Below the pieces are notes generated by a model, which was not told where the DNA came from, searched no databases, and saw only the letters and a list, made by a program, of their open reading frames with translations. A stretch of 64,000 bases of DNA from Pyrodictiaceae archaeon (lineage in GTDB: Archaea > Thermoproteota > Thermoprotei_A > Sulfolobales > Pyrodictiaceae): contig JALVSY010000007.1 in NCBI GenBank assembly GCA_027036135.1, forward strand, positions 740,880-804,879, read 5' to 3'. This document shows, piece by piece, positions 18,307 to 45,140 of the stretch. The position numbers were made by a program, and so were the translations under genes. The number at the start of each line of letters is the position of its first letter. Positions within the stretch are counted from its first letter, which is position 1.

Positions 18307-18404
18307 ACTAACGTCTGCCCTCGCATAGCCAGGCTAGGCTATCTCGTCACTATCCTCTTATTTCCTCCTCGTTTGGGCTGTTAGCCCACAAGAGAACTCA
18401 TTAA

Positions 18405-18418
18405 TTAACACGTGTTAA
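18405..18418. promoter_or_regulatory. Palindrome TTAACACGTGTTAA upstream of octaheme cytochrome gene
   Basis: Perfect 14-bp palindrome; same TTAAC-N4-GTTAA core at 34024-34037. Confidence 0.45.
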
Positions 18419-18533
18419 AGCTATGGTCTGCTCCGAAAAGTTAAGGTTGCAACGCTAAAACCAATGCCCCGCATTATAACATAGACTACCCGGACAACAA
18501 GGTAACGATGCACTATAAGAGGGAGGACAAGCC

Positions 18534-21188
18534 ATGAACATGAAATACCTATTTCTAGCCCTTTCGATAATAGCATTGTTAGTCCTCCCCTACATAGGAT
18601 TAATGGCGCCAGCCCACGCTGAGGACTACCAGGGCCCAGAGCCAAGGATGGGAAATGCGAGCATTAAAGAACTCCAACAGCTGTTAAAAAGCAACATAGT
18701 TAGCCCGCAAACGAAGGCTTGTATAGCATGCCACATAAAGTATACGCCTGGCATCGTCTACCAATGGCTAAATAGCGCTCACGCCCATCACCCCGCCATG
18801 GATGCAGCTGAGCTATACAAGGCGATAGGCGCCACCCAGTGGATAGATAAGATAAGCCCCAAGTTCAAGAACTACCACTATGTAGTAGGCTGCTACGAGT
18901 GCCACGGCATGTTCGCCGACAAGAATAGACCAGATGTATTCAACCACTTCGGCTTCAAAATAGTAACAATAGTAACCAGGAAGGATTGTGCACAATGCCA
19001 CCCTAAGGAGAACGCGGAGATAAGCTGGACATGGCACGCCACCGCCACTCTACACGCTACCTTCCTTCCATGGTACAAAGGCATACTAACATACGCAGCC
19101 AAGGTTCTAGGAGCCAACCCATTCGGTAACACTGAGCAGAAGAAACTATACGAGGAGTATTTCCCGCCATACTTGACCGAGAAACGTGACCAGCAACCAG
19201 TCTACTGGAACTTCTACGAAAAAATAGCTAAGGCAATCTACGACTACTTCAACCACAAGGCGACAAGCGAGGATATGCAGATAATAAACATGCTAAAGAA
19301 GGCAACCGGTATGATATCACCCTATGATAAGGACTTTAAGAACTGGATAAGCCCGCTATGGCCAGCAAGCGGCACGCTAAATACAACAGTACTGGAGAGA
19401 GACCATGTAGCAATAACAGTACCGGCGCTAGGGCTAGAGAACGGAACATACACTATCTACAACCCAATGAGTCATCCATGGTTCAGGAACGCTTACATGT
19501 ACCATGCATGTATAGAGTGCCACGGCTCCATAGTTATACCATACAAGGTTGTAACAGTAGATGTGAACGGCCTACCAACAAGACTGATGCTTTACTGGGG
19601 CTGGCCAAGCGTTGGAGCAGGACGCGTGGATCCAGACGGTAGCATAGGTACATGCACCGCCTGCCACGATGCCCACATGTTTAGCATAGCTCAAGCAAGA
19701 CATCCATGGACATGTGGCCGCTGCCACCTGGGCTATGATCACCCACAGATAGAGATCTATGAGGAGAGCGCACACGGCAATATAGAAAATGCTTACGGCA
19801 AGTATTATAACTGGGAGCACCTACCATGGCGCGTAGGCGTTGACTTCATAGCACCAACGTGCGCAACATGCCATATGAGCACTATAGCTGTAGTGTATCC
19901 AAATGGTACGGAACGCATAGTTGTAAAGGGTACGCACGATTTAGAGGCTAGATTAGTATGGGATGAGACACACTTCTTTGCAGTACCAAAGCCAATCATA
20001 CCAGACAAGGTGCAAGAGGCACTATTCCTGCACTACAGCGTGCTGAAAGGCGATCTAGGTGCTGTATTAAAAGCACACGAGGAACTGGTGAAAGAAGGGG
20101 CACCGATAAAGTGGCCAGTATACTGGGGCATAAAGATAAGCGAAGGCTATAAGCCAGGCCAGTTTGGCTTCCCAAGACTACTTAACATACAATTCACCGG
20201 CACACTAGCGCAGCACCGTGAGGAGATGAAGAAGGTATGTGAGCTATGCCACAGCATCCCGTGGGTAAACAACTACTTCAGAACAGCCGATCAGAACATG
20301 ATAGACTATGACGTAGTAGCGCACTTTGCGTTCAACCTACTAAAGCTAGCATGGAAGCTAGGCATACAGCACAAGAACAACTTAATGGACGAGTACATGG
20401 AGTGGTGGTGGTACTACATCTGGCACCACCAGGGCAGAAGATGGAGAATGGGCGCCTTCATGATGGGGCCTGATTACGCACACTGGTTCGGTATCGTTGA
20501 CACGATGAAGGCGCTAATGAAGATGACGGAATACTTTGATACAGCACTAAAGATTAGAGAATTACAAATGGAGATAGCTGCACTAAAGAAGCAGGCAACC
20601 GGAGCGCCATACATGCCGGGAGTACAAGCACAAATAGCACAGCTGCAACAACAGCTACAACTACTTGAATCACGCCTACAAGCACTACAAGCACAAGTAC
20701 CAGTAATACAGCAGCAGATAAGCAAACTAGATATGGACTTCAGCAAGAATGCAGCAAAGACACAGCAGAGCATTGCACAGATACATGAGAGCATACAAGA
20801 ATTGATGGCACAAATAGAGCAGCTAGCGAAGCAGCTACCATCAGCCCCGCAGAAACAAGAGATAGAGAAACTTGTAGCAGATATAGAGCAGACAATTAAC
20901 AAAATGCAGCAAATAGAGCAGCAGGTAAGTACTGCTGCAATGGCTGCAAAAGAAGCCAAGACTGAGGCAGCAAAGGCGAGCGAGGCAGCAGCAGCAGCCA
21001 AGAGCGCTGCGGCGGCAGCTAAGAGCACCGCTGGAGCAGCCTATGAAAAGGTAACAGAATTATCAAGCCAGGTCCACAGTCTAAGGACAAGTGTAGAGAA
21101 CATGGCTAGGGCTGCATTCGCGATAGGTGTTATAGCAATAGTTATAGCAATAATAGCTGCTGTGGTTGCCTTTATAAGAAGGGGCTAA
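18534..21188 (+). CDS. Octaheme c-type cytochrome, HAO family (epsilon-Hao/Ignicoccus OCC-like), with signal peptide, coiled-coil stalk and C-terminal TM anchor
   Basis: Eight CxxCH (CIACH, CYECH, CAQCH, CIECH, CTACH, CGRCH, CATCH, CELCH); GRVDPDGSIGTCTACH..H.FS, CHLGYDHPQIEIYEESAHG, APTCATCHM, GAFMMGPDYAHWFG. Confidence 0.92.
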   Translation: MNMKYLFLALSIIALLVLPYIGLMAPAHAEDYQGPEPRMGNASIKELQQLLKSNIVSPQTKACIACHIKYTPGIVYQWLNSAHAHHPAMDAAELYKAIGATQWIDKISPKFKNYHYVVGCYECHGMFADKNRPDVFNHFGFKIVTIVTRKDCAQCHPKENAEISWTWHATATLHATFLPWYKGILTYAAKVLGANPFGNTEQKKLYEEYFPPYLTEKRDQQPVYWNFYEKIAKAIYDYFNHKATSEDMQIINMLKKATGMISPYDKDFKNWISPLWPASGTLNTTVLERDHVAITVPALGLENGTYTIYNPMSHPWFRNAYMYHACIECHGSIVIPYKVVTVDVNGLPTRLMLYWGWPSVGAGRVDPDGSIGTCTACHDAHMFSIAQARHPWTCGRCHLGYDHPQIEIYEESAHGNIENAYGKYYNWEHLPWRVGVDFIAPTCATCHMSTIAVVYPNGTERIVVKGTHDLEARLVWDETHFFAVPKPIIPDKVQEALFLHYSVLKGDLGAVLKAHEELVKEGAPIKWPVYWGIKISEGYKPGQFGFPRLLNIQFTGTLAQHREEMKKVCELCHSIPWVNNYFRTADQNMIDYDVVAHFAFNLLKLAWKLGIQHKNNLMDEYMEWWWYYIWHHQGRRWRMGAFMMGPDYAHWFGIVDTMKALMKMTEYFDTALKIRELQMEIAALKKQATGAPYMPGVQAQIAQLQQQLQLLESRLQALQAQVPVIQQQISKLDMDFSKNAAKTQQSIAQIHESIQELMAQIEQLAKQLPSAPQKQEIEKLVADIEQTINKMQQIEQQVSTAAMAAKEAKTEAAKASEAAAAAKSAAAAAKSTAGAAYEKVTELSSQVHSLRTSVENMARAAFAIGVIAIVIAIIAAVVAFIRRG

Positions 21189-21221
21189 CCAAATAGCAAT
21201 AAGCCTCCATCCACACTAACA

Positions 21222-21241
21222 TTTTTTAACATTCTTTTTTC
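21222..21241 (+). terminator. Oligo-T terminator after octaheme gene
   Basis: TTTTTTAACATTCTTTTTT about 35 nt after the stop. Confidence 0.5.
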
Positions 21242-21333
21242 AAGACCTAAATAATTTATAAGAAACTTACCGACTTTAAAATAATATTACTGACTAAAAG
21301 GATGGCGATAGGGAAAGAGATCGGTATTTAAGT

Positions 21334-22869
21334 GTGAGATTCTTGAAAAATGAATATATCGTGATCACTATAGCTATATTAGTGATATTGATGTTAACCT
21401 TAGCGCCTAGTATACTGATTGCTCAAGAAAACAGCTTCCTTAGTAAGTCATACATCTTCATCTCCTTGAGACCCCTCTTAGGAAAGAATTCATGGCAGGT
21501 AAACATTAGTGCAGACATAGAAGAAAACCTTTTCAGATGCAAAGGCGTGGTGAGGGCAAACCCGTATTATAGGGAGACAAGGGCGGTATCAGCAACGCTT
21601 CTCTCTGTACCACTATATTATGTCCTTGACTCAGTATGTCCTAACCTCACTCTTCTACTCGATGTCATAAAGCCAACTGGACTCGTTCACATAGTTATCA
21701 ATGTCCCTAGGAATTATTATATATATACTGCAATGGATTCTCGGGGATACGGTTCTCACGGAAAGTATGTGTTACTGCTTGGATTGTTCACTCATCAATA
21801 CCTATTTGATGGAATAGTTGTTGCTTCAAAAAGGTACTATAAAGCTGCTAGGATTTATAGAATTACTCTTATAGAGCCACGCGGTTCTGCATATAATTAT
21901 ACGCTTGTAGCCAGAGTCGTGGAATGTGTTAGTGGTTTTCTTCGCAAAGAGTTAGGGCCTAGCAATCGTAACCCCGTAGTGGTAGTTATTGCTGCTGGTT
22001 GGGATCATCCATATATGTTGACCGGGGTAGGATATAGCCTTGGTGGCGTCATATATATCAAGCCGGGCTCGGACCTAGGTAGTCTTATTCATCTTATTGC
22101 GCACGAGACTGTGCATAGCTGGATAGGGAAAGGTAAACTGCAAGGAGGACCAAGTCTAGTAGAGGGGGCCGCTGAGCTATTATCCCTATTAGCTCTCTCC
22201 TCCTGCAACAAGGAAATGTATAAAAAGGATCTCCTCTACGAAGTGATGAGCCAAAAAGCTAACCCTTACAATGTCTGGCTCCGACTCCACGCAGCAATAA
22301 GAGAGGCCTCCATATATGCTTGTAGAAGGGATCTCTATATTAAGGCACTTCACTTACTCTATGAACGGGGAAAAAAGAACGCCAATATATTCGATCTATT
22401 GATGACTATTAAGAAGTTAGCGAATAATTACAGTTGCCTAGACACTCTCGAGAAATACCTAGGTAGGGCATTATTAAACATAGGAAACGAATCGCTAAAA
22501 GAATTACTAAATACTTCACTAAAACAAGGAAATCAAGAAATAACACAATACTCCGTAACTAGTACTCGAATAATACGCACAACAGCATTAAAAACAAGTG
22601 CCGAGACCTTGATAAGATATCGTCATTTCACCAATAGCACGAATAGACCATTAAGAATACATGAGCGTGAGTTAACACGTGGCAAAGAATATAATAGTAC
22701 GGATACCAGGCACACTATAAACCGTATTAGTAACACAGAGCATAGCTTCAGAATAGTAAAAACCTGTGTCTTTAGTAATAAGCATAGTCTCTACTTGCTA
22801 GCCTTGTTAATCATAATTGTACTCAGCATTATTATCTATAATGTGCTGATAAGTAAATATTATATTTAA
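21334..22869 (+). CDS. Secreted, membrane-anchored gluzincin-like metallopeptidase
   Basis: N-terminal signal, AHETVHSWIG..EGAAE, Thr/Asn-rich linker, C-terminal TM. Confidence 0.6.
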   Translation: MRFLKNEYIVITIAILVILMLTLAPSILIAQENSFLSKSYIFISLRPLLGKNSWQVNISADIEENLFRCKGVVRANPYYRETRAVSATLLSVPLYYVLDSVCPNLTLLLDVIKPTGLVHIVINVPRNYYIYTAMDSRGYGSHGKYVLLLGLFTHQYLFDGIVVASKRYYKAARIYRITLIEPRGSAYNYTLVARVVECVSGFLRKELGPSNRNPVVVVIAAGWDHPYMLTGVGYSLGGVIYIKPGSDLGSLIHLIAHETVHSWIGKGKLQGGPSLVEGAAELLSLLALSSCNKEMYKKDLLYEVMSQKANPYNVWLRLHAAIREASIYACRRDLYIKALHLLYERGKKNANIFDLLMTIKKLANNYSCLDTLEKYLGRALLNIGNESLKELLNTSLKQGNQEITQYSVTSTRIIRTTALKTSAETLIRYRHFTNSTNRPLRIHERELTRGKEYNSTDTRHTINRISNTEHSFRIVKTCVFSNKHSLYLLALLIIIVLSIIIYNVLISKYYI

Positions 22870-22992: not shown

Positions 22993-23865
22993 TTGAGAGG
23001 TGGGCTCTTGATAAATCAATCAGCCGTAGTATTCTGTCTTACACAGATACCGGGATGCCCGTTACAAATGCTTATGAGAAAAACCGTGGAGTCCTCCTTA
23101 AACGAGACTAATAACACTAATAACAGTACTAGTAACTCTATGAATATCGTCCTAAACATGGTTTCAGGGATCGCTGGTCGTGTTCTCCGTGCTGGTCTTC
23201 ACCGAGAAGAAGGCTATACTGAGATCTGGCTGCGCATAAGTGGTGCTAGTGGTTACCTAGATCTATTCGAGAATAAAATGAGACAAGAAGAAGGGGTTGC
23301 TTTTCAAAAAATCTTTAGTAATAAGTTTAATACCGTATATCGGATACTAATAGAACATAATAAATGCCCATGTGCTAACGATAAAGTTACTCATTGCCCA
23401 TTATTAAAGGCTATGCCTGGAGCCATGGTAAAGTCTAGCATTATTACGCCGTACGGACTCCTCTGCGAATTCTTGGTCGCTAAGAGCAGAGTTATCTCAG
23501 AGTTAAAGCAGCGCGGCTGTAAGATACTCCTAATGCACGAGATAAATGGCTATGACTTCATGCTGACCCAGAAACAAGAACTCGCCATTATATATGCTTA
23601 CCTCATGGGCTATTATCACTTTCCGCGCAAAGTCAGCCTTAAGGAATTGGCAGCTAAGCTGGGTTTATCTGTTTCAACTCTTGCCGAATTGCTTAGAAAA
23701 GCTGAGGCAAAAGTTATTGATGCTTACATAAGGCATGAGTTACCTCATTATCTTGTAGGTCTAGTGATGAGCAAGAGCACCTATAGAGATTTTGTTGAAA
23801 ACCAATTTGGTTCAAAACATGAGGAGAAGAAAGAGAAAGTGTTAGTTGAGGCCAAGACTAGCTAG
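22993..23865 (+). CDS. HTH-10 (Bat/DmsR-like) transcriptional regulator, Cys-rich
   Basis: LTQKQELAIIYAYLMGYYHFPRKVSLKELAAKLGLSVSTLAELLRKAEAK is the HTH_10 signature; 7 Cys in N-terminal part. Confidence 0.88.
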   Translation: MRGGLLINQSAVVFCLTQIPGCPLQMLMRKTVESSLNETNNTNNSTSNSMNIVLNMVSGIAGRVLRAGLHREEGYTEIWLRISGASGYLDLFENKMRQEEGVAFQKIFSNKFNTVYRILIEHNKCPCANDKVTHCPLLKAMPGAMVKSSIITPYGLLCEFLVAKSRVISELKQRGCKILLMHEINGYDFMLTQKQELAIIYAYLMGYYHFPRKVSLKELAAKLGLSVSTLAELLRKAEAKVIDAYIRHELPHYLVGLVMSKSTYRDFVENQFGSKHEEKKEKVLVEAKTS

Positions 23866-24059: not shown

Positions 24060-25628
24060 TTGCCAAGGTTTAGCAGGAAGTCCATGAGGCTTGATCTTAA
24101 GGCTTTTCAGCGCCAGAAGCGCAGTGGCCTTGTACTCATAGTAGTTATCTTAATTGCTGCAACTATCGCGTTTGGACTGGTTGCTTATATGGGCGATGTT
24201 TCTCACCTCTATTTCGAGGTAGAGGGAAAAGCTATTCCTAATCTGGCTACACTACAAAAGCTTATATCTAGCTCCAAGAAACCCGTTGCGGTAATGTTCG
24301 AGTCTCCTACATGCCCTGTTTGTAAGAGGATGTACCCTTACTGGGCTAAGCTTGAAGAAAGGAGTCCAACGCTTCCTGTAAGCTTTTACCATATATTATA
24401 TGGGCCTCAGACAGCCTCTGCTTTTCAGAAGTATCACGTATACGATACGCCAACATTCATAGTATTTGTTAATGGCAAGCCCGTGGCACGACATGTTGGT
24501 GCCTTTATTTCCGGAAATATTACGGATTCTATGTTAGCATGGGCTATTGGAGCCTCTGGGCTACCTCAAGTCATGAATCCAACCGAGCTTGCAAGACAAG
24601 GGCTGAGTATCTTTAATGAGAAGTGTGCTGCTTGCCACGGAATAATACCAGGAATTGATAAAAAATCAATACTATTATGGCTTAGAGGAAGGAAGGTAAT
24701 GAATGATCCATTAGCTAGCGTGTTCTACGAAGCACTGAAGAGGAATATGACGCTTGAAGAATACTTTGGCGGCTATACTAATCTGAGAGACACTGTCGCG
24801 ACTATGAGAAAATATACCGAGTTAACAGCATACGAGCTTAGCAGAACCACTTACCTACTCTCGTATATGTCTCATATTCTACTAGGGCTCAAGCCTCCGG
24901 TATTTAACTTGTCCGACGTAGCCACATTATTTAATTCAACTAGTCCTAAAGAGGCCCTGCCACTGAGAAGCAAAGAGGCCGGCCTAGCCGGACAAGCCGC
25001 TAGTATTATTAGTGCCGTAGCTGCGTTTGTCGCAGGATTCGTTGCAGCCTTCTCACCATGCGTCTTGCCTCTCCTAGTAACACAGGCAGCCACGATCAGT
25101 GCTACTGGGAGAAAGCTAAGTGCTAGTAATTGTGGACTATGTGGGTTTGCTTCATTTCTCGGCGTTATAGCTATAGGCTTATTATTTGTTATCGCGGGAG
25201 TCCTAGCTACAAGCATACAAGAGGTACTTTTACCGGTAATGGCATTAGCCATAATTGCTGCAGGTACAGCGAGCTTACTAGGTGTGCCAGTAGAACTCGA
25301 TACAATGCTAAGCACAAAACATGGAGGACTCTACGGCTTCTGCGCAGCATACGGGTTCCTCGCTGTTCAGTGTAGCCTGCCCTTAGTAGTAGGCTCGCTT
25401 CTCCTAGTATTGAGCGCAGGGGCTGGAATCTCGGGAATACTAGTAGCTGCTAGCTTTGCCCTAGGCGTAAGTCTCCCCCTAGCGATCGTGCTTTATGCTG
25501 TCTCGAGGCTTGGTGCAGGCGTTGTCAATAAGATAATGCAACACAAGAGAGCACTCGATATAATGGGCGGCTTAGTGCTTCTTGGCTCAGGTCTCTACCT
25601 GCTACTATACTCGTTAGGATTTGTTTAA
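24060..25628 (+). CDS. Thioredoxin - cytochrome c - CcdA/DsbD fusion
   Basis: TM, Trx fold (SPTCPVCK..YPYW, TPTFIVF.NGK), CAACHG heme motif, CcdA TM domain (AFSPCVLPL..QCSLP). Confidence 0.8.
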   Translation: MPRFSRKSMRLDLKAFQRQKRSGLVLIVVILIAATIAFGLVAYMGDVSHLYFEVEGKAIPNLATLQKLISSSKKPVAVMFESPTCPVCKRMYPYWAKLEERSPTLPVSFYHILYGPQTASAFQKYHVYDTPTFIVFVNGKPVARHVGAFISGNITDSMLAWAIGASGLPQVMNPTELARQGLSIFNEKCAACHGIIPGIDKKSILLWLRGRKVMNDPLASVFYEALKRNMTLEEYFGGYTNLRDTVATMRKYTELTAYELSRTTYLLSYMSHILLGLKPPVFNLSDVATLFNSTSPKEALPLRSKEAGLAGQAASIISAVAAFVAGFVAAFSPCVLPLLVTQAATISATGRKLSASNCGLCGFASFLGVIAIGLLFVIAGVLATSIQEVLLPVMALAIIAAGTASLLGVPVELDTMLSTKHGGLYGFCAAYGFLAVQCSLPLVVGSLLLVLSAGAGISGILVAASFALGVSLPLAIVLYAVSRLGAGVVNKIMQHKRALDIMGGLVLLGSGLYLLLYSLGFV

Positions 25629-25658: not shown

Positions 25659-28600
25659 ATGAGCCTTCATATAGGGCCTCTCCACTACTCCGGTATAGTA
25701 CCATTAGTAGCCCTATTAGTACTGATATATGGTGTTGGTAAGGCACTAATTGGCAGAGATGCCCGAAGGATCCTAAAGATAGGGTTCTTGTTAATCATTA
25801 TTGGCTGGCTTATATATTGGATACCTTATGTTACCCTGGACTTTAGCCTAAAGGAAGTATACTGGGATACAAGCCCGGAGTTGCCCCTCTGGATGCGATT
25901 CGCAGCAGCTTGGGCAGGTAGTGGCGGAAGCTTATTCCTCTTCACACTAATAGCTAGCCTAGCATCGCTCTATGCGCTGAAAAACGCCACACGCTGGTTG
26001 CAAGTCGCGCTAGGCTCTATAACAATAATAGGTCTCATAGCAGCTTTCCTTAATGACGCCTTCACAGCCCTCCCCTCAACTCCCCCTAGCGGCGCCGGGC
26101 TTAACCCCTTGCTAAAGAGCCCCTGGCTATACCCTCACCCACTTTCGACGTTTAGTGGCTATGCCTTACTAGCTATAGCAGCAGCAGCGCTCCTAGCCGG
26201 ACAGAAGAGAAAGGGATACACACTCTACGAGATAGGCTGGGCCTTCCTCACCCTTGGCATACTATTGGGTGGGTACTGGAGCTATGAGACATTTGGCTGG
26301 GGTGGTTACTGGGCCTGGGATCCCGTGGAGACAAGCGAGCTAATGGTGTGGCTAGCAGCCACGCTATTACCACACATACTTTATGCAGCTCCAAGTCTCG
26401 CTGATTTCTCGGAAGGCCTCATAGCCTCCAGCGTGTTCTTAGCAATGTATGTGACGCGCACCGGGCTAAGCCCACTTCACAGCTTTGCCGCCCCAAGCAT
26501 AGGAGCAATAATACTCCTCATCACCGGGTATTCATGGCTCCTCCTAGCAACAATAAAGCTCTACTTCAAACTAGAGCCAGGCATCCGCGACTTAGTAAAT
26601 AGCTTGAGAAGCGGTAGCACGTACCGAGTAGGCATCACTATAGCCGCGCTTTCGCTCTTAGCCGCTACCTTGTTTGTCTACAGCACATTACTGGTCCCGG
26701 CTACAATAATAGCCACAGGTAAGACAGCTAGCGTCCCGCAAATGAATTCGGGTATTCAGTATTTCCACCCAGTTCTCTATCCACTATTAATAACCATGCT
26801 AGCAGCTATGCCAGCAGTGTTCCTCGGAGAATGGCTCGGATGGCGAGGCTACTTCGCCTTACTAGTCACAACGGGTCTTGCGGCAACAACTCTTGGATTA
26901 GCTGCTTACTATGATAAGGTTACCCTAGCGCCTCTAAGCCCTCTCGGAACCAATGCCGAGATGGCCTTTGGACTTGTATGGGCAGGGGTAGCTGCTGCAT
27001 CAACCCTAACATATCTTGGACTCCGCGCTCGTAGAGGACTCCGCGTTCTTTTACGTGACCGCTTGGGTGGATTATCGTTACTTCACTTGGGACTAGCTAT
27101 AACTGTGATAGGGGTGCTACTAAGCGGGACATATGCGTTTAACCAAGCCTATATGAAGACATATCATGTTAAACCTGGGCAAGAAATAGATTTACCGGGC
27201 GGATTCAGACTAGTATTTAAAGGATTTAAGTATAGTATCAGTCATTCAAAGGTGGACATTTATACTAGATACGTAAATCACGCCACAAGTTATTACTATG
27301 GGCAACTGGCACTTTACACTCTTGCCCAAGATTTTGCGCGAACAATACAGAGCTACGAAAAAGGAAAGATCATATACAAGGAGAACCCCATTATAAGAAC
27401 CCTAATAAACATTGCCTCGAAAAAAGCGATATTCTATCCAGGAAACTATACAATAGAGACCCGGGCAACAATAAGATATATAAACTTTGCAACAAATATA
27501 ACACTATTATTAACCGACAACGAACCCGTTAAAATAAAGATAGTAAACATGACCCTAGAACCCCTAGTAAACCAGAACCCTAATACTGGCAAATACTACC
27601 TCTACATGCCGATTCAAGGAAATAAAATAGAAATGATACTGCCACGGAATATATCAAAATTCATAACACCAGAACTAGGAGTACACGCCTTCCTAGCAAT
27701 ACAGTTCACGAAACCAGCAAGAATCATAACCAAAAACTTAACCATAATTATCAATAATGCATCACTATTATCAGAGCAATTCGTAACTGGAGGACAAGGA
27801 GCACCACTAAGGGTAAAGAACAATACTATAACTGGTTCGTTCGCTGTACTTGACATAAGGCATGCAAAGATAATTACAAAGAATGGCACAACAGTAACTA
27901 TACCAGCACAAATACCAGCAAGTGCAATAATATACTACTCTATAACAACTAATCCGACCTACAAGAAAATATTAGAGGCCATTAAAGAGACCGGGCTCTA
28001 CAAAATACTAGCCAATCCAGATAACATACTTAGGCTCGCATTTACGCAGAAGTGTATAAATGAGATGAGCAAGGGAGCATCATTTGCTCCTCCAAGTGAG
28101 TGCCTTGCCTATGTTAGGGCACCGAAGCTAGTACCAGAGACGGCATGGTTAAAACTCCAATTCAAACTAATAAGAGGACACACATCCAAGGAAATCAATA
28201 CCAGAATAAGGTACGAGGCGTATGGCGAGATACAAGGCATACATGGGCTTGTGCCGAAAGTTATTCATCCAGGAGAGGGCATAGACGAGGTTTACATAGT
28301 ATTGGAGCCACCTATGATTAATAGTTTCCTTTATGGCAACCAGATGGCTTACCATGAACTCTTTATTTACTATCTACATGAAGTATTCAAGAATCTGACG
28401 CCTCCCCAGAGACTTGCACTAGCAGCTGTAATGATTGGCGGATATGAGTCCGATATGTTGAAAACAATGAGTGAACAACAAGCCCAGAACCTGCTTGAGG
28501 GAAGCCTCATCGACGTATACATACTAGCTTCTAAGTTTAGTCCAATGAACTCTACAATATATAGAGAGGGGTTACTAGTAAAGGTCAAGATAGTGCCAGG

Positions 28601-30976: not shown

Positions 30977-31651
30977 GTGGAACAACTAGTTGCATTGCTT
31001 AGAAAAGATGTACTGATTATTAGCAGACGTTGGCATGAACTAGCCTCGCTTATCATAATATCGATCGTCATAGGAATAGGCGTGGCTTATATGATATCGG
31101 GGCCCTTGGCTCCGCTGGCTGAGCGGCTTGATGCAACTGTAGTGGTGGCTGCAGGACAAATAATAGTTTATTTCATAATATCCATAGCTACGGGTTTTAT
31201 AGCAGTATTGCGAGAAGCTGAAAAAGGGACCCTTGATGGCTTGCGAGCTTCTCCTCTTAGCCCGGAGACTCTTTTTGTGGCAAAGCTGATTTATGTATAT
31301 TTGATAATAATTGTTTTATCCTTTGCATATTCCCTTGCTACCATCTTCTTTTCTGGGTATACTAGTATCTTTAATACGAGCTATATAGTGCTTAGTCTCT
31401 CTATAAGTCTTTATTTCGCGTCAGCAACTGCTTTAACCTCCTTTATGATAATCTATAGTGAAGCACGTAGCCTTCTCTCAATGGTGGTTTTATCTGGGTT
31501 GCTTGCTCCATTTCTACAAGAGGCTGATAGGGCGCTAGCAGCAGCTGCGGCAGGAACTGCGACTGGAGGCCAAGCTGCACAGATACTTGGAGCAGCATTA
31601 GCATTCGCGGTTATAGCTACTATATTGTCGAAGCCGCTCTCAGAGATCTAA
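30977..31651 (+). CDS. ccmB: Heme exporter permease CcmB
   Basis: LLRKDVLI, REAEKGTLDGLRASP, AK; six TM segments; ccm context. Confidence 0.82.
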   Translation: MEQLVALLRKDVLIISRRWHELASLIIISIVIGIGVAYMISGPLAPLAERLDATVVVAAGQIIVYFIISIATGFIAVLREAEKGTLDGLRASPLSPETLFVAKLIYVYLIIIVLSFAYSLATIFFSGYTSIFNTSYIVLSLSISLYFASATALTSFMIIYSEARSLLSMVVLSGLLAPFLQEADRALAAAAAGTATGGQAAQILGAALAFAVIATILSKPLSEI

Positions 31652-31721: not shown

Positions 31722-33242
31722 TCAAGAGGAATTTTGTCTTTTCCTCCTAGGAGGCTCCAGAGGACTTAGTCCTAGTCTTCTTCTAACCCTATTCACAACG
31801 CGGTAGAGTGTTTCGTAGTCTACTTGGTCGTCGCTTATCATGCCTAGGCTGTATTTCTGCTTACAGCTCTCGCACATGAGTAGTTGCGGCATCTTTTCCG
31901 GGTGATGGCCTTTTAGTATTAGTCTCTCAATAGTCTTCTCTATCATTGCTGCTGCTCCTAGCGGCTCGCCGCATACTATGCAACGAAGGCTCTCTTTAAG
32001 GACCAGGGGGGTCCATGTATTTATTAGGTTAGCGTTTACGGCCTTAGATACGCTCAAGGCGTTCTCCGGGCATATCTCCTCACAATAGCCACAAGCTATA
32101 CAACGGTCATGTAGAAATAGCAGAGCAGAGACATCGCTTGCTTCTTTAACAACAAGAGCATTAGCTGGGCATTCGTAAGCACATGCCCCGCAGAGAGTAC
32201 ACTTTTCTGTATCAATTTTCAGCACAGAGCTAAATCCCGTGGAAAGATCCGCTGCTATTCCGAGCTTTTTTAGAACGGCTAGGGCTAGTGGCCTGAGTCC
32301 ACGTGAGAGGTACTGACTGGGGTTATTGATGCTATATACTCGTGGCTCTCCTTTTATGAGCACCTTTACCTCATCTAGGCTATGGAGCAAGCGAAGGCTT
32401 GTCACCTTGACATAGTCTGACTCAACCATGTCCTTATAGGGGGCTCGGGACTCTCTGCATCTCTTTACCTCTCTTTCCCACCCTGCCTCTATAATAACTG
32501 GCTGTAATCCTACAGCGTGAAGCGCAAGAAGCTCTTCGAGACCAATTACGTATGGACAGGAGACCGGAACTATCACTACTGGGGCTTTTGTCTTATTAAT
32601 GGACTCTAAGAGAGCGGCTATAGAGCTGCGAGGCACTATGAGTGCGTAGCCAGGCTTTCCCAGCGGCACTATACTGCGCAAGGCATCGCGGAGCCCTGAT
32701 CTCGTATAGCCGGGGAGATAGAGTAATTCTATTCCACAAATCGCTGCAGAGACAGGACACCCCCCACTAATATTGCACACTGAAAGGCATTCTTCACAAT
32801 ATTTCTCCACTGCTGGATGCCTGCACAGAGTGACGTCCTCTATGGGTCTCTCCGTATACTCCATCGCTGTACCAATTACTGTTCCTCTTAGTAATGCCCT
32901 CCGAGTTACTCTCTTTTCTGCACCACCGAGCTCGCTGAAGGCCTCCTCTGCAGGCCTTCTCGCAGTATATGCTATGCGAGAAAGAAGCAAACGCCCCCAG
33001 CTAATACCCGCAAGTTCAGCTTCTCGAGGATCAATCGCCTCTAAGAGGTAGTAGTTTTCAGCATTTATTCTCATCTCCCTAGCTAGCTCAGAATATAAGT
33101 TCCAGGCACCAGTTCCTACTAGTATAACTTTATCATTATTATTGAGGACTATCTGGCGAGCTTTCTTCTTGGCCTCTTCTTGGCTTCCTACCCGTATAGC
33201 GCCTGGGGCCTCAACCGAGTCAAAGACTATAGCTTTGACCAT
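31722..33242 (-). CDS. Polyferredoxin-type 4Fe-4S binding protein
   Basis: CTLCGACAYECP, CIACGYCEEICP, CIVCG..CESCK, further Cys clusters N-terminally. Confidence 0.75.
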   Translation of the reverse strand: MVKAIVFDSVEAPGAIRVGSQEEAKKKARQIVLNNNDKVILVGTGAWNLYSELAREMRINAENYYLLEAIDPREAELAGISWGRLLLSRIAYTARRPAEEAFSELGGAEKRVTRRALLRGTVIGTAMEYTERPIEDVTLCRHPAVEKYCEECLSVCNISGGCPVSAAICGIELLYLPGYTRSGLRDALRSIVPLGKPGYALIVPRSSIAALLESINKTKAPVVIVPVSCPYVIGLEELLALHAVGLQPVIIEAGWEREVKRCRESRAPYKDMVESDYVKVTSLRLLHSLDEVKVLIKGEPRVYSINNPSQYLSRGLRPLALAVLKKLGIAADLSTGFSSVLKIDTEKCTLCGACAYECPANALVVKEASDVSALLFLHDRCIACGYCEEICPENALSVSKAVNANLINTWTPLVLKESLRCIVCGEPLGAAAMIEKTIERLILKGHHPEKMPQLLMCESCKQKYSLGMISDDQVDYETLYRVVNRVRRRLGLSPLEPPRRKRQNSS

Positions 33243-33326: not shown

Positions 33327-34007
33327 TCAGTGACGACGGGCAAGAGCGATAGCTGCTATTATTATTCCTATGATGAGCACTGCTATTCCGGCGTATAGCC
33401 CCGTTTTTATCATTTTGTGTAAGTGGCTGCTATACGGCTTCACCGTCCTCCAGGCCGTCTCAGTGATAGTTGGGGGCGGGGTTGTATATGCCTTTTTGGA
33501 TACTGTTGTAGTGGTTGACGTAGTAGTTGTACTAGTGGTCGTAGTAGTTGTTGTCTTTGTAGTTGTAGTAGTTACCGTGGTAGTCGTGGTAGTGGTTTTT
33601 GCTGTAGTTGTTGTCTTTGCCGTACTAGTAGTAGTCGCTGCTCCCGCTTTCGCCTCCTCGAATACCTGCTTAAAGAAGTCATATAGTAGCTTAAAGTCTT
33701 GATTACTTAGTCCCCCTGCATAACTTCTCATTTGCTGCATAAGCTGCTCATAGCTACTTGCTTGTTTATACTCATGTGCGACGGCCTCATCAAGAGTCTT
33801 GTATTTCTTAGCCCATCCCTTTATGATTTTGACTAGTTGATCAAACGATGGAGCCACTTGACCGTTATGACATGTTGCACAATGGGCTTGAAATATTTGT
33901 TTCACTTTCGCTTCATTAGCTGTTTGGCTAGCGGCTATCCCTATACCAAGCATTAATAGAGCCATTACTACAAGCCCAAGGATGCTTCTTGCACCGGCGC
34001 GGGCCAT
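33327..34007 (-). CDS. Monoheme cytochrome c with Thr-rich linker and C-terminal TM anchor
   Basis: Signal peptide, CATCHNG, poly-Thr tract, hydrophobic C-terminus followed by RRH. Confidence 0.85.
   Translation of the reverse strand: MARAGARSILGLVVMALLMLGIGIAASQTANEAKVKQIFQAHCATCHNGQVAPSFDQLVKIIKGWAKKYKTLDEAVAHEYKQASSYEQLMQQMRSYAGGLSNQDFKLLYDFFKQVFEEAKAGAATTTSTAKTTTTAKTTTTTTTVTTTTTKTTTTTTTSTTTTSTTTTVSKKAYTTPPPTITETAWRTVKPYSSHLHKMIKTGLYAGIAVLIIGIIIAAIALARRH
33500..33636 (-). repeat. Low-complexity ACN codon tract encoding poly-Thr linker
   Basis: TTTSTAKTTTTAKTTTTTTTVTTTTTKTTTTTTTSTTTTSTTTTV. Confidence 0.8.
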
Positions 34008-34037: not shown

Positions 34038-34054
34038 TTAGGGTATATAAAAAA

Positions 34055-35332
34055 CTAGTGTGCACTATTTTCGGGTACAGTTGCTGTCTTAATACCCGGT
34101 TTGAAATAGTGAGTCATTACTGCCTTTATCGCTGGTCTTGCTAGCCATAGATAAATCATTATTCCTAGCGCATGCACGCCCAGCGCTATACCATACTCTA
34201 TTGGTGTTGGGTGGTACGGTCTTATTTCTCCTAGCGTGCTAGGCGTGAATCCCGGGACGAGTGTAGCTAAGGTCTTTTCGGATGTTACTGCTATTATTGT
34301 GAGTATTGCTATAAAGGCCATTGCTCCCTTGCTCCTATGAGTTGATGGTATAAAGCTTAGCAGCACTGCCGCTACTGCAAAACTTATCCATATCCATTCA
34401 AGCACTGCTAAGTAAGGCAAATGTAGACCATAGAATAGGTTTCTTGCTTGTGCCCATTTCATCGGCTCCGTAGTGTACCAGAATATTTCCTGTGCATCGC
34501 TGAAGGTGAAGTAGAGTCCCACTATTAGTCCTCCTGCGATAATGTATATTATCTTTTTATACATTTCTGCGCTAACGCTGAATCCATCGATGTATCTCTC
34601 AGCAAGATATATCGCCAGCAGAACCATTGCTGGCCCAGCAGCCAACGCCGTAGCCACAAAGCTTGGCGCCAAGAGTGATGTATTCCAGATCGGGCGTGCT
34701 CTTAGTGCCTGGAAGATGAATCCCGTCACCGTGTGTATACCTATAGCGAATGGCGCTGCTAGCACTATGTATGGTATGATAAATTTCTTTGGCAAAGGTT
34801 TGTCCTGCCGATAGTAATGTATAGTCACATAGACCGCTACCAGGTTTATCGTTAGATATGTTGAGATCACTATGAAGTCCCAGTCTAGCATTGAATGGAG
34901 ATTTGGCAGGAATGGTAACTCGAACATAGCCCTTATAGGCCTACCCAGATCAGCAAAACCGACTAAGGCTAGCACTATTATCAGTGCTGCTACTGCTTGC
35001 ACCTCGCCTAGCACTGCTATCTTGAGGAGCTCCTTATCCTGGAAGATGTAAGCAGCTACGCCAAATGCTATCCCCGCAGCCGCTACGCCAACCCAGTATA
35101 TGAAGAACGCTATATAGAGACCCCATGGATCGCTGTCATTCATACCTGTTAGCGCTAATCCACCATAATCCGTATGCAGAAATACTGGCGCGTGCTGTAT
35201 GAAGAACCATAGGTAGAAGCCGTATAGGAATATCAGCGTTAGGCCAACCATTGCTAAGTAGTAGCGCTTACTGCCCTTGAACCCATCCTTTATTATTATG
35301 ACGAATGTATCCCACCAGTCCTTCCAGCTCAC
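34055..35332 (-). CDS. NrfD/PsrC/DsrP-family quinol-interacting membrane subunit
   Basis: TGMND..PWGLYIA, ADLGRP.R, WDF, IHTVT, ARPIWNT.LLAP.FVATA; about 10 TM. Confidence 0.9.
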   Translation of the reverse strand: MSWKDWWDTFVIIIKDGFKGSKRYYLAMVGLTLIFLYGFYLWFFIQHAPVFLHTDYGGLALTGMNDSDPWGLYIAFFIYWVGVAAAGIAFGVAAYIFQDKELLKIAVLGEVQAVAALIIVLALVGFADLGRPIRAMFELPFLPNLHSMLDWDFIVISTYLTINLVAVYVTIHYYRQDKPLPKKFIIPYIVLAAPFAIGIHTVTGFIFQALRARPIWNTSLLAPSFVATALAAGPAMVLLAIYLAERYIDGFSVSAEMYKKIIYIIAGGLIVGLYFTFSDAQEIFWYTTEPMKWAQARNLFYGLHLPYLAVLEWIWISFAVAAVLLSFIPSTHRSKGAMAFIAILTIIAVTSEKTLATLVPGFTPSTLGEIRPYHPTPIEYGIALGVHALGIMIYLWLARPAIKAVMTHYFKPGIKTATVPENSAH

Positions 35333-36432
35333 TTAGAGCCACCTCCATTCTGTGCCTCCTTACTTGTACTAGCAGCACCTTCTCTAGGAGGTGTGCGTGC
35401 AGGCCCAAAGAAATAGAAGAACTTTGGATGAGTACCTGCGTCGGGTTTCAACACGAAGAGACCATATTCCTCTGCTATTCTCCGTATGGGGCTGTTGGGA
35501 TCATTCAAGTTACCAAATACCCTAGCACCAACTGGGCAGACCTCTACACACGCTGGCACGCCACCGTCACGCGTGCGCTGTATACACCAAGTACACTTCT
35601 CCATGACATGTATCTGCCTAGGCACGTTACCGAGTATGTGCATGTTCGGATTCAGTTCCAGCACTGGTATATAGGGCTTCTTCCAATTGAAGCGCCTAGC
35701 TCCATAGGGACATGCTACCTCACAGTACCTGCACCCGATACAGCGATCATAGTCTATTACTACTATCCCGTCTGGCTCCTTGAACGTCGCTCTAACGGGA
35801 CAAACCATAACGCATGGCGGCTTCTCACAATGCATACAAGCTATTGGTATATAGACCTTATCCTTCTTCGGCCCTTCCTTATAGTACCACTGTGAGCCAA
35901 GCAAGTCCTGGAACTCCATTCTATTGGCTTCAAGTACTCTTATCCATTCTATGTGCAGGTTCCGGGCCTGGTTGTTCTCCATGACGCAAGCGTAGACACA
36001 GCGGCGGCACCCAATACACTTGTTGAGATCAAGGGCCATAGCGTATCTGACGCCTTTCTTTGGCGGTGTTGCTTTTACTACTAAAAGCTTACACTTTTGC
36101 TTGACTAGTTTGCACTCCTCGGATGATTCGCCGTATTTCTCGCAAACCTTTCTTGCCTCTTTTTGGCACCACTTCTTTAGCTTCGCTTCTTTCTTCTTGG
36201 CTCTTTTCTCTAGAGCCGATTGTGAATCTGAGGGGCCTCCTAGCGGGTAATCCAGCATGCCCTCTAGTTTTACTGGCTTCAGAACCTTCATTAACTTCTC
36301 CTTATCAACAAGAGGTATACTTGTAATCGCAGCCCCTACAGCCATTAATTTGAGAACATCCCTACGCTTCTCATCTATCTTTCCATTATTCATGGCATCT
36401 TTATTGTTATCGTTTTTAACATCACGGTTCAT
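35329..36432 (-). CDS. NrfC/DsrO-family 4x[4Fe-4S] subunit with twin-arginine signal
   Basis: KRRDVLK; CIGCRRCVYAC, CMHCEKPPCVMVCP, CIGCRYCEVACP, EKCTWC..PACVEVCP; GGAGGTGA SD before ATG 36432. Confidence 0.92.
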   Translation of the reverse strand: MNRDVKNDNNKDAMNNGKIDEKRRDVLKLMAVGAAITSIPLVDKEKLMKVLKPVKLEGMLDYPLGGPSDSQSALEKRAKKKEAKLKKWCQKEARKVCEKYGESSEECKLVKQKCKLLVVKATPPKKGVRYAMALDLNKCIGCRRCVYACVMENNQARNLHIEWIRVLEANRMEFQDLLGSQWYYKEGPKKDKVYIPIACMHCEKPPCVMVCPVRATFKEPDGIVVIDYDRCIGCRYCEVACPYGARRFNWKKPYIPVLELNPNMHILGNVPRQIHVMEKCTWCIQRTRDGGVPACVEVCPVGARVFGNLNDPNSPIRRIAEEYGLFVLKPDAGTHPKFFYFFGPARTPPREGAASTSKEAQNGGGSK

Positions 36433-36439
36433 AAGGGGG

Positions 36440-37183
36440 TCACCTCCTTGAACCAGAGTCGCCATGCCTAGAGGCAGAAGGAGCATAGTGCACAACAAAA
36501 GCAATTCCAACAACTATTAACCCGCCAACTAGAGCTAATACATCACCAATAGCTATACTGGTCTCCTTTGGTGGAGCGGGTCTTTCGGATGGTGTCGGCA
36601 GTATATTTAGTGGCTTAACTACTGGGTCGTGTGGATTATGGCACTCCACACATGCCCTCGCTGGCACCGTTTCCAAATGCTTATAGCCGTCGGGGCATAT
36701 GTGATAGTAATAGTTGACACCCTTATAGCCATGGATTATTATTACTTTTCCTCCAGGACATGTAAATGTCTTATTACCATGTATAAGGTCTAAGTAGTCC
36801 TGGTATTCTCTAGGATGGCAGATGGCACAGAGCTTGTTTGTTTGCATTACTAATGTTCTGTTATGGAAGCCAGGAATGTAGACTCTGGCACCGCCTCTTA
36901 GGTTTATGAATGTTGGTGGTATGTGGCAATTCGCGCAATAAAGTCCTCGGTGAGGGCCTTTAGTTAGATCTATGTGATGGAAGGGTACTTTCTTTACCAT
37001 GCCATTTAAGTACGGCATATGTGCATGGCACTTTGTACAAGGATATATACTCTTATAGTACTCAAATAGTTGCTTGTTCTTCGTACTGTTACTAGCTGCG
37101 TGCGCTATACTCATGCCTGCTAACATGATTATTACTAGTGATAACGTTAGCGCGATAGTTGTTCTTCTTAGCATATACCTCAC
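36440..37183 (-). CDS. Tetraheme cytochrome c, membrane anchored
   Basis: CTKCH, CANCH, CAICH, CVECH; signal peptide; C-terminal TM. Confidence 0.88.
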   Translation of the reverse strand: MRYMLRRTTIALTLSLVIIMLAGMSIAHAASNSTKNKQLFEYYKSIYPCTKCHAHMPYLNGMVKKVPFHHIDLTKGPHRGLYCANCHIPPTFINLRGGARVYIPGFHNRTLVMQTNKLCAICHPREYQDYLDLIHGNKTFTCPGGKVIIIHGYKGVNYYYHICPDGYKHLETVPARACVECHNPHDPVVKPLNILPTPSERPAPPKETSIAIGDVLALVGGLIVVGIAFVVHYAPSASRHGDSGSRR

Positions 37184-37457
37184 CCCGGCAAGGAAACCCG
37201 CGAACTGAACGCCGACCTGTACCCTATGTCTTCCTTGGTCAAAGGCTAAGGGATCAGCCTAGGTAAAAGATATTGGCCCGCAAAAATTTGGTCGGAGTAA
37301 GATAATTCGTATAAGAGGATAACAGTGCCATAAGAGCAGTATCCATGACCTCCCCCTCACGATTACTACGCTTAATTAGATTAATTAGACTAAATGATAT
37401 TAAAGCCTAAGGCGTATTTACAATAAATGCCGAAATGATTAGTTTAGGGTGTGATAT

Positions 37458-38159
37458 ATGAAACACATTATAATGTTTGCTATTATTGTTGCCCTTATTA
37501 TAATGATCGGTTTGACAAGCTATCAATATGCACGTGCAATGAGTTCGGGTGCTCCTTCTCTGAATTGCGTGCAATGCCACCGCGGCGCAGAGAAAAGACC
37601 AGCTACATTTATTATAGAGGGGTTGCCAAAGAAATATACACCTAGTAAGATATATACAATAATAATAAAGATAACAAATGGACCAAAATGTAATCCGAAT
37701 ATCGCATGCGGTGGCTTTGCTGTAAAAGTGAATTCGGGCAAACTGATAGTGACAGATCCTAAAGATACTCAAATACGGGCCTCGCCCATGGGGGAGATAA
37801 TCACACATACTAAACAAGGCTCAAAGAAACGTGAATGGAGCTTTGAATGGAAGGCCCCAAAGACCATGAGGCCCGTAACCTTTGAAATATCGGTGCTCGC
37901 CGCCAACGGTGATGGAAGCCCACTAGGCGATGCCTTTGCACAAAAGATCATCACTATTCAACCAGTATCGGTCACAACAAGTACAATAACTATGAACAAG
38001 ACTAAGAATCCAACAATTACCAAAATAACACCAAAGACGCAACCCTACACGATTACTACAAAAAAACAAGAAAAACGCAACACCCTAGTAGCAACTGCAT
38101 CAGCAATACTCCTATTTGTACTAGCTACAGCTGCATACCTATTTGTTATTCGAAAATAG
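37458..38159 (+). CDS. Monoheme (CxxCH) Reeler-like / choice-of-anchor V domain surface protein
   Basis: Signal, CVQCH, GLPKKYTP...GGF...ITHT..WSFEWKAP...AANGDG...GD, Thr/Lys-rich linker, C-terminal TM. Confidence 0.72.
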   Translation: MKHIIMFAIIVALIIMIGLTSYQYARAMSSGAPSLNCVQCHRGAEKRPATFIIEGLPKKYTPSKIYTIIIKITNGPKCNPNIACGGFAVKVNSGKLIVTDPKDTQIRASPMGEIITHTKQGSKKREWSFEWKAPKTMRPVTFEISVLAANGDGSPLGDAFAQKIITIQPVSVTTSTITMNKTKNPTITKITPKTQPYTITTKKQEKRNTLVATASAILLFVLATAAYLFVIRK

Positions 38160-38327
38160 CATCAACCTGGTTTAAAGACGACTTTTGACCCCTCTTCTTC
38201 GTTCCTAATTCTTTTTATGCTTTTTATTATCCTAGATAACACTAGAGGAAAGAAATATAATAAGTTCTGAATCGCTGTAGAGACCTATACCCCCGTGACT
38301 ATAATATACTATTTTAGGGATGGATTC

Positions 38328-45138: not shown

Positions 45139-45140
45139 GA

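Follow-up and report, generated by a model that had tools for sequence, protein, structure and literature searches.

How does a nitrate-respiring archaeon without a recognised nitrite reductase deal with nitrite? Nitrate-respiring Pyrodictiaceae pose this question, and for Pyrodictium delaneyi strain Hulk the genome paper states outright that no recognised nitrite reductase is present (PMC5556600). We examined it in a 64,000-nucleotide stretch of the genome of a Pyrodictiaceae archaeon (GenBank assembly GCA_027036135.1, contig JALVSY010000007.1, positions 740,880 to 804,879; hereafter the window), which carries a cytochrome block of 15 open reading frames (ORFs) at 18534-38159 of the window. 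Genes A-I lie on the + strand and converge on J-N on the - strand, with O, encoding a Reeler-like monohaem cytochrome, divergently transcribed from N. The reading we favour, to which we give about an even chance of being correct, is that the block encodes an inherited chain from quinol through the iron-sulfur and membrane proteins M and L and the tetrahaem cytochrome N (with the monohaem cytochromes K and O) to the octahaem cytochrome A, which in this organism would take nitrite as its substrate. The features of the block are as follows.

A, 18534..21188, + strand: octahaem cytochrome c of the hydroxylamine oxidoreductase (HAO) family, 884 amino acids (aa); 8 CxxCH; PF13447 Multi-haem_cyto, E 2.4e-16
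B, 21334..22869, + strand: membrane-anchored extracytoplasmic protein, 511 aa; HExxH...E gluzincin-like motif; conserved neighbour of A
C, 22993..23865, + strand: HTH_10 (Bat/DmsR/NarO-type) regulator, 290 aa; PF04967, E 2.1e-17; conserved Cys in the N-terminal part
D, 24060..25628, + strand: transmembrane anchor, thioredoxin (CPxC), CxxCH segment and polytopic CcdA-like domain, 522 aa; PF00085
E, 25659..28691, + strand: CcmF, 1010 aa, with a long additional C-terminal part; PF01578 (Cytochrom_C_asm) and PF16327 (CcmF_C)
F, 28691..29341, + strand: CcmA-like ABC ATPase; PF00005; place within the ccm run, kept in relatives
G, 29391..30467, + strand: CcmC, 358 aa; PF01578, E 3e-28
H, 30451..30858, + strand: archaeal-type CcmE, 135 aa; C-x-x-x-Y replaces H-x-x-x-Y; no Pfam match
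I, 30977..31651, + strand: CcmB-like ABC-2 permease; PF01061 (ABC2_membrane)
J, 31722..33242, - strand: cytoplasmic iron-sulfur protein, 506 aa; 2x[4Fe-4S] domain and Cys-rich parts; Fer4 families
K, 33327..34007, - strand: class-I monohaem cytochrome c, joined through ~80 Thr-rich linker residues to a C-terminal transmembrane anchor; PF00034
L, 34055..35332, - strand: NrfD-family membrane subunit, 425 aa, ~10 transmembrane helices; PF03916, E 8.2e-28
M, 35329..36513, - strand: NrfC/PsrB-type four-cluster protein, 394 aa, twin-arginine signal; Fer4_11, E 3.5e-19
N, 36440..37183, - strand: tetrahaem cytochrome c, 247 aa; N-terminal and C-terminal transmembrane helices; 4 CxxCH
O, 37458..38159, + strand: Reeler/spondin-like monohaem cytochrome c; Thr-rich linker, C-terminal transmembrane anchor; PF02014

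Haem-binding CxxCH motifs occur in five of these ORFs (A 8, D 1, K 1, N 4 and O 1; 15 in sum). Across the whole 2.2-Mb assembly, only two stop-to-stop ORFs of at least 80 aa carry at least two such motifs, both inside the block, a concentration beyond chance. For A, B, D, K, N, O and the CcmF, CcmC, CcmE and CcmB proteins, tblastn gave no further copy elsewhere in the genome. The block therefore holds the entire cytochrome c complement of the genome and the only cytochrome c maturation (Ccm) machinery able to make it. An earlier reading made from the letters of the window (the sequence-only reading) had described a self-contained respiratory block with five CxxCH proteins, an NrfC/NrfD pair, ccmF-A-C-E-B, a thioredoxin-CcdA fusion and an HTH_10 regulator; the CxxCH counts, Pfam matches and CcmE motif confirmed each item, and the lack of paralogues of the octahaem, tetrahaem and monohaem proteins, CcmF/C/E/B and the thioredoxin fusion elsewhere bore out the self-containment. 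A transmembrane scan found an N-terminal hydrophobic helix and a C-terminal transmembrane helix in each of A, B, K, N and O, and all five are predicted to be exported and tail-anchored.

Protein A comprises a signal/anchor helix, a core (~37-655) interrupted by a clade-specific insertion (188-323), a helical stalk (~655-860) and a transmembrane helix (863-881). It scored 60 bits against PF13447 (cut-off 21.9), and searches of PDB sequences matched it to 4qo5, the Ignicoccus hospitalis octahaem cytochrome c (IhOCC), with an E value of 5.8e-79, and to HAOs with values of 1e-13 to 1e-16. Consistent with these matches, the AlphaFold2 (AF2) model of A (pLDDT 75.6) had 4qo5 as its best structural match (Z 24.6; 474 aligned, rmsd 3.1), with HAOs, NeHAO and KsHOX among them, and HAOr (1fgj, 4fas, 4n4j, 6h5l) at Z 13.8-14.3. 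The model thus predicts an HAO fold and places A in the HAO family of octahaem cytochromes c. Within this family, sequence comparison identifies A as the probable orthologue of the second Ignicoccus octahaem cytochrome and not of IhOCC: the I. hospitalis-named 638-aa protein P0047, which we take, by elimination only, to be locus tag Igni_1359, is 52% identical to A over 72% of A's length and has the insertion 188-323 in common with it, and the 551-aa IhOCC-type P0075 is 33% identical. Among the matches listed (120 of 1072), the nearest named homologues came from Pyrofollis japonicus (72%), Hyperthermus butylicus (55%), P. delaneyi (P0020; 54%) and Pyrolobus fumarii (53%), and no genuine Nitrosomonas or anammox HAO sequence was present. 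Residues expected of an enzyme are conserved. The motif of the five-coordinate-type haem 4 is strictly kept in A's clade, as is an Asp-His pair after the sixth haem motif (64 of 66 members), which in A is Asp402-His403 and aligns with Asp267-His268 of NeHAO (1fgj), named as functional residues (PMC3814345). Asp-Val replaces the pair in 48 of 55 IhOCC-like or bacterial relatives.

The nitrogen metabolism of the host genome (G000), which is rated 99.6% complete, makes nitrite a plausible substrate. A NarG (1617 bits)-NarH-haem-b gamma subunit-NarJ cluster lies at G000:C7:244000-252500 (locus L031), and the gene of a quinol-dependent nitric oxide reductase (qNOR; 728 aa, COX1 plus a NorB cytochrome-c-like domain) adjoins that of an Amt ammonium transporter, 5-9 kb upstream of the window (G000:C7:731000-736000; L037 9366-13670). 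NrfA (PF02335) had no match in the genome, with the control matched in two genomes, and NIR_SIR, NirS (cd1), Cu-oxidase_3 (NirK-type) and Hcp were likewise not found in it; NosZ (PF18764) also had no match there, but its control matched no genome either. With no NrfA, NirS, NirK, sirohaem reductase or Hcp found, A is left as the only candidate nitrite reductase of this genome.

A probable source of electrons for A is the converging module N-M-L-K. M has four Cys groups for four clusters and an RRDVLK twin-arginine motif at residue 50 of the longest ORF, its true start probably lying downstream of the TTG. Its closest PDB sequence was PsrB (2vpw_B, 6.5e-38), with further matches to ArrB and to the iron-sulfur half of ActB of alternative complex III (ACIII; 3.5e-34). 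L matched the NrfD Pfam family at 98 bits against a cut-off of 25.8, and its sole solved relatives were ACIII ActC chains (1.5e-8). DsrO and DsrP were the top NCBIfam matches of M and L, yet both fell below their cut-offs (M, 185.2 bits against 200; L, 218.5 bits against 350), and M reached 121 bits for cyt_nit_nrfC, for which the equivalog cut-off is 377.6. In N, the four CxxCH motifs and five further His residues were invariant across 17 sequences. N gave only weak matches of NrfB, DmsE and NapC type and nothing relevant among PDB sequences by phmmer, and a search with its AF2 model (pLDDT 71, pTM 0.41) against 48,161 PDB representatives returned nothing above Z 6.0, with helical hairpins filling the list. 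K keeps its CxxCH in all 12 sequences compared and has a linker of ~80 residues that is 57% Thr plus Ser. By analogy, N-M-L would work like E. coli NrfBCD or a minimal ACIII, in which a quinol-oxidising pair of NrfD and a four-cluster protein has a multihaem outlet.

We then followed these genes through 151 genomes of the order, including the host, and examined linkage in 25 metagenome loci fetched with A and, within 20 kb of A, in 10 genomes. The octahaem cytochrome occurs in 26 of the 151 genomes (the host, 17 of 19 further family genomes, all six of family f9, two of three of f12 and none in the other ten families), and N in 22, in the same three families only. Of the 25 metagenome loci, 18 have at least one block gene in addition to A: 13 contain ccm genes, 8 the regulator, 6 N-M-L and 3 B. 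The others are mostly contigs of 3-9 kb. In three loci (L009, L010 and L016), N-M-L(-K)-A run on one strand. N-M-L lies within 20 kb of A in five of the 10 genomes, and the other five have an intact N-M-L(-K) unit elsewhere; in family f9 the octahaem gene is beside neither the tetrahaem/NrfCD unit nor B. All 15 genes are colinear in the same-genus genome G066, which has the same flanking PAPS-reductase-like gene, and in three genomes of another genus (G036, G046 and G001) these genes also form a single block, ~18 kb long and differently ordered. The conserved linkage in relatives that the sequence-only reading proposed to look for is therefore present: N-M-L(-monohaem) is a conserved unit, and in many relatives it stands beside the octahaem gene. 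Stops or frameshifts break the genes for A, B, C and D in G001, and the NrfC-like gene of G056 is spread over two frames (loci L054/L055 and L046/L047); these are natural knock-outs, in organisms evidently living without the chain.

The same loci bear on whether the NrfCD-type pair could instead be tied to a molybdoenzyme. Neither molybdopterin subunit of the host genome found a relative in the 25 loci or in five separate N-M-L loci, and two weak matches only, kilobases away, were seen in two genomes. The two molybdoenzymes of the host, NarG and a Psr/Phs-like enzyme, each have their own adjacent iron-sulfur and membrane subunits, and the idea that the pair serves either of them was dropped for that reason. 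Because N-M-L lacks an adjacent molybdopterin gene and the molybdoenzymes have their own partners, the pair appears to belong with the cytochromes; the tie to a molybdoenzyme that the sequence-only reading had named as fatal to its proposal did not appear at the level of gene neighbourhood.

That N-M-L is a conserved unit beside the octahaem gene, with no molybdopterin gene, supports a chain from quinol to the octahaem cytochrome. Methylmenaquinone has been reported in the family (PMC8105010, citing Elling 2016), and in our proposal methylmenaquinol would be oxidised at L/M on the outer face, with electrons passing to N and then, directly or via the tethered monohaem cytochromes K and O, to A. 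A would probably be a trimer, held off the membrane by its helical stalk of ~200 residues. Residues 655-860, long helices in the AF2 model, have hydrophobic residues in a heptad pattern; taking 0.15 nm per residue, simple arithmetic would make the stalk a rod of roughly 30 nm. A three-copy fold prediction of residues 655-862 (alignment A2) scored 0.18 against a mark of 0.42, was run without controls and has no bearing on a trimeric coiled coil either way. The substrate in the host would be nitrite from NarGH. A would reduce it to ammonium, in the manner of IhOCC and epsilon-Hao in vitro, or to NO, in the manner of anammox HAOr, to supply the nearby qNOR. Published work describes IhOCC as an octahaem nitrite reductase (PMC9250108) and HAOr as forming NO from nitrite (PMC8042395). 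Where relatives have no nitrate reductase, the chain would serve detoxification or another acceptor. The sequence-only reading had drawn a similar path from quinol through NrfD/NrfC, tetrahaem and monohaem cytochromes to the octahaem protein; its linkage of module and octahaem gene stands (6 of 25 loci and 5 of 10 genomes), and the electron flow itself is what we infer. If A is the nitrite enzyme, NrfA-independent nitrite reduction would extend to growth near 100 degrees C, and surveys counting only nrfA, nirK and nirS would miss nitrite reduction here. With one Nar, one qNOR and one cytochrome c block, the host is the cleanest test case so far among nitrate-respiring Pyrodictiaceae without a recognised nitrite reductase.

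Several observations weigh against nitrite as the substrate. NarG was scored by TIGR01580, which would miss Nap-like enzymes such as the one reported for P. delaneyi; by this measure only the host, among the 26 octahaem genomes, is above the cut-off, with a truncated 900-bit piece in G132 and a weak 180-bit match in G112. Both same-genus genomes and all six f9 genomes lack NarG, 14 of the 17 genomes with NarG matches lack the octahaem A, and qNOR was found in no more than 3 of 29 genomes of the family. The octahaem cytochrome of P. delaneyi was detected on nitrate as well as on ferrihydrite, and the monohaem cytochrome Pyrde_0485 reached higher levels on iron (PMC8105010); for Ignicoccus, a role in sulfur reductase or as a hydrogenase relay has been put forward (PMC4429474). 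A itself is distant from IhOCC at 33% identity, has Asp-His in the distal pocket where most IhOCC-like or bacterial relatives have Asp-Val, and has a Tyr at or near the position of the HAO cross-link. Given that NarG is absent from the two same-genus genomes, Nar looks like a recent addition in this lineage, and Nar and qNOR together look like additions to a genome that already held the block. Because the block does not travel with Nar, its ancestral role must have been broader, in detoxification or in electron transfer to sulfur or iron acceptors. Nitrite ammonification, as the sequence-only reading proposed it, is thus plausible in this genome, where NarGH is present and other nitrite reductases were not found, and not supported as a general role (NarG in 3 of 26 genomes); the search for nar, nap and nrfA that it suggested found NarGH and no NrfA, with an octahaem distribution that does not follow NarG.

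The distribution fits a different reading, clearly less probable to us but a serious possibility, in which the block is a general extracytoplasmic electron hub not tied to nitrogen. Hydrogenase or menaquinol would deliver electrons to S0, polysulfide, thiosulfate or Fe(III), and the octahaem cytochrome would be a store, a relay or a reductase of some other substrate. The octahaem gene is found across the family, f9 and f12 regardless of NarG, and the block encodes the only cytochromes c of the genome. The P. delaneyi proteins, present on nitrate and on ferrihydrite with the monohaem higher on iron, would fit such a hub (PMC8105010), as would the proposal that the Ignicoccus tetrahaem cytochrome is part of a sulfur reductase and the finding that hydrogenase reduced both Ignicoccus octahaem cytochromes (PMC4429474); the authors who described a look-alike bacterial locus also allowed it a role with tetrathionate or polysulfide (PMC5276818). 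However, strict conservation of the haem 4 motif and of Asp-His points to an enzyme rather than a wire, and every relative that has been solved and assayed uses N-oxides or hydroxylamine as substrate (PMC9250108, PMC8042395). Sulfur compounds, moreover, are served by the separate Psr/Phs-like molybdoenzyme with its own iron-sulfur and NrfD subunits. If the hub reading is true, the block would be the core of hydrogen-driven respiration in the family.

Two further possibilities turn on a single column of the alignment. A Tyr at the cross-link position goes with oxidative catalysis in HAOs. Tyr648 of A, in 'PDY' at the start of the last core helix, aligns with Asp481-Val482 of the cross-link-free HAOr 6h5l (Tyr648 against Val482, in a stretch not significant alone). 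Structural ranges (1fgj 58..682 against 74..499; 6t5e 58..684 against 108..484) put Tyr467 of NeHAO and Tyr449 of B. fulgida at residues 649-650 of the model, provided that the last helix is gapless and with a precision of ~2 residues; in profile searches against PDB sequences (alignments A2 and A3), the NeHAO C-terminal helices were not significantly aligned and gave no residue-by-residue mapping of Tyr467. By the best mapping, good to ~2 residues, the column holds Trp in IhOCC, Val in HAOr and Tyr in A. Within A's clade it is Tyr in 38, Phe in 26 and Trp in 2 of the 66 members, with Phe in the P. delaneyi- and H. butylicus-named proteins. Since the mapped cross-link position of A coincides with a Tyr or lies no more than 2 residues from one, the premise of the sequence-only reading that A is a cross-link-free HAO is unproven. 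With Asp-His kept and Tyr or Phe at the variable column, the clade offers a natural series on the direction of HAO catalysis.

The first of these possibilities, which we regard as improbable, makes the stalked clade (A and the second Ignicoccus octahaem cytochrome) a distinct HAO lineage and not an IhOCC-type ammonifier, with Asp-His kept and the cross-link Tyr present in about half of its members, A included. Here it would be an NO-forming (or P460) nitrite/hydroxylamine enzyme that operates together with NarGH and qNOR. It would stand ~30 nm above the membrane, fed by the Thr-linker monohaem cytochromes, and B would cut the stalk to give the soluble form seen in Ignicoccus. Less probable again is an oxidase of genuine HAO type, bearing the Tyr-haem (P460) cross-link, which would oxidise hydroxylamine or hydrazine and return electrons through the cytochromes and the NrfCD-type module to the quinone pool. 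The match of Asp402-His403 to the NeHAO pair, the alignment of Tyr648 with Val482 of HAOr and, if the helix is gapless, its place close to the mapped NeHAO and B. fulgida tyrosines would suit such an enzyme, but the column varies freely in the clade, which an essential covalent link would not tolerate, Tyr is also common at the same column in the Asp-Val clade (35 of 55), and the residue mapping is good to ~2 residues only. We also know of no hydroxylamine source in an anaerobic hydrogen oxidiser; no search for ammonia monooxygenase was made. The Trp of IhOCC at this column, a substitution reported for reductive homologues in the preprint from which the Tyr numbering is taken (bioRxiv 10.64898/2026.07.28.741245), is a further point in favour of the oxidase.

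The block is AT-richer than its flanks, as the sequence-only reading had noted from two hand-counted lines (17/60 at 27481 and 37/60 at 17761, both exact): GC is 0.445 over 18400-38200 and 0.515 in the rest of the window, and all 14 block genes scored have a GC at third codon positions below the genome median, nine of them at or below the 12th percentile. That the block is nevertheless a recently acquired genomic island that brought in a foreign respiratory system, 'gained as a unit' in the earlier wording, is very improbable and largely refuted, as the same 15 genes, order and PAPS-reductase-like flank recur in G066, the octahaem gene is in 17 of 19 further family genomes, 5.5% of 2026 sliding 20-kb windows (taken from the three large contigs; mean 0.500, sd 0.033) match or fall below the block in GC, block and flank differ by only -0.037 to +0.021 in six relatives, and no tRNA gene was found in the window, no flanking direct repeat at the block and no integrase family among the flanking ORFs scanned. 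Gene content and order instead point to an inherited cytochrome c branch shared by the Pyrodictiaceae and Ignicoccus-like neighbours.

Base composition is more unusual elsewhere. The lowest-GC stretch of the genome (~0.40 over 20 kb) lies outside the block at G000:C7:420000-443000 and is a far better candidate for foreign DNA. A second AT-rich patch of the window (41000-47700; GC 0.40-0.46) holds two family-less ORFs and a MazE/PhoU fusion and is followed by a Pst-type phosphate ABC transporter. In the assembly, some two dozen contigs of 1-3 kb (C3, C8, C10-C12, C14, C15, C17-C20, C22-C25, C29, C31, C33, C34, C38 and C39) have a GC of 0.17-0.35, against ~0.50 for the large contigs, and could be contaminating or associated DNA of another organism.

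The inherited chain resembles several named systems in part. In P. delaneyi, Pyrde_0485-Pyrde_0496 has been noted as a putative respiratory complex bound to the membrane, a description that assigns it no function (Kashyap and Holden 2021, PMC8105010). Its parts match those of our block, with monohaem 0485, 'sulfur-reductase-related' 0486 and 0487, tetrahaem 0488, monohaem 0492 and octahaem 0496, and genomes of genus g2 hold the same genes in one block. It differs in gene order, in belonging to an organism with 17 predicted cytochromes c (PMC8105010) as compared with five CxxCH proteins here, and in the octahaem protein P0020, which has Phe at the cross-link column where A has Tyr. Kletzin et al. 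had also catalogued these cytochromes and an archaeal Ccm variant (PMC4429474). The 'undescribed system' of the sequence-only reading was therefore already on record in P. delaneyi (PMC8105010), although our literature searches turned up no functional study of the stalked octahaem clade. Overall, that reading was right about the architecture, plausible in its choice of nitrite, and wrong about origin and novelty.

In Ignicoccus, P0047 shares the insertion, Asp-His and Tyr with A, whereas IhOCC, despite being the best structural match, is a paralogue at 33% identity with no insertion, Asp-Val, Trp at the Tyr column and no long stalk; its activities transfer loosely to A. E. coli NrfABCD likewise combines NrfD, a Tat-exported NrfC and a multihaem relay that feeds a multihaem N-oxide reductase on the outer face, but here there is no NrfA and no CxxCK in any haem protein of the block, the relay has four haems rather than five and is membrane-anchored, and the terminal enzyme is of the HAO family. 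With M below the NrfC equivalog cut-off and matched at family level only, the module is not an Nrf system of the E. coli type. The bacteria Thermosulfurimonas dismutans and Dissulfuribacter thermophilus have a four-gene locus for a Hao-like protein, NrfD, a 4Fe-4S protein and a transmembrane cytochrome c beside nap. The function proposed for the locus is nitrite reduction independent of NrfA or, failing that, a role with sulfur compounds (PMC5276818, Slobodkina et al.). The likeness is by kinds of protein only: that locus adjoins nap and, as described, has no Ccm genes, stalk, B or tethered monohaem cytochromes (PMC5276818). ACIII offers the nearest solved relative of L in ActC, a match of M in the iron-sulfur half of ActB, and multihaem and monohaem partners in ActA and ActE. 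However, M matches only residues 797-1002 of the 1039-residue ActB and has no molybdopterin-like domain, N has four haems where ActA is pentahaem, and no counterpart of ActD/F or DsrM/K/J was seen among the 15 block genes; the module is thus neither an ACIII nor a DsrMKJOP complex.

The remaining genes of the block are also conserved. The Ccm set conforms to the archaeal variant of System I, with CcmA, B, C and F present, a CcmE with C-x-x-x-Y and no CcmH-like ORF seen in the block. H keeps GCHxxY in all 14 homologues. The variant CcmE is cited in PMC4429474 and PMC5556600 (both citing Allen 2006), and CcmH is reported among Archaea only in Ferroglobus (PMC4429474). The regulator C, which occurs in 8 of the 25 loci and in 6 of the 10 genomes, keeps Cys22, Cys125 and Cys135 in 14 of 14 sequences. 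The CxxCH of D is present in all 10 sequences and its CPxC in nine, the remaining gene being broken; the CcdA likeness of D is suggested by topology, with no family match. B has no Pfam or NCBIfam family; HExxH and a downstream Glu are present in all 10 orthologue genes (in the broken gene of G001, on separate pieces), and the Atlas gave weak leads to M1/M61 peptidases (TM-score ~0.5). B adjoins A in 3 of the 25 loci and in 7 of the 10 genomes, outside family f9, and as a guess it might process A. J has no signal peptide or clear transmembrane helix, matched generic Fer4 clusters only in the Atlas, and also occurs in G066, L009, L010 and partly in L011. O, with a Thr-rich linker of ~45 residues, keeps its CxxCH in four of four sequences and is of the same kind as 'cluster 38', two I. 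hospitalis monohaem proteins (PMC4429474).

Beside the octahaem gene, a PAPS-reductase-domain protein with a zinc ribbon (16885-18306 of the window, - strand) adjoins it here and in G066, G009, G031, G020 and L004. On contig C16 the Psr-like molybdoenzyme operon has a paralogue next to it, and the protein is a recurring neighbour of respiratory clusters. Further upstream, at 3465-5704 of the window, there is a LutAB-like pair for lactate utilisation, made up of a CCG-domain protein and a LUD-domain/4Fe-4S protein.

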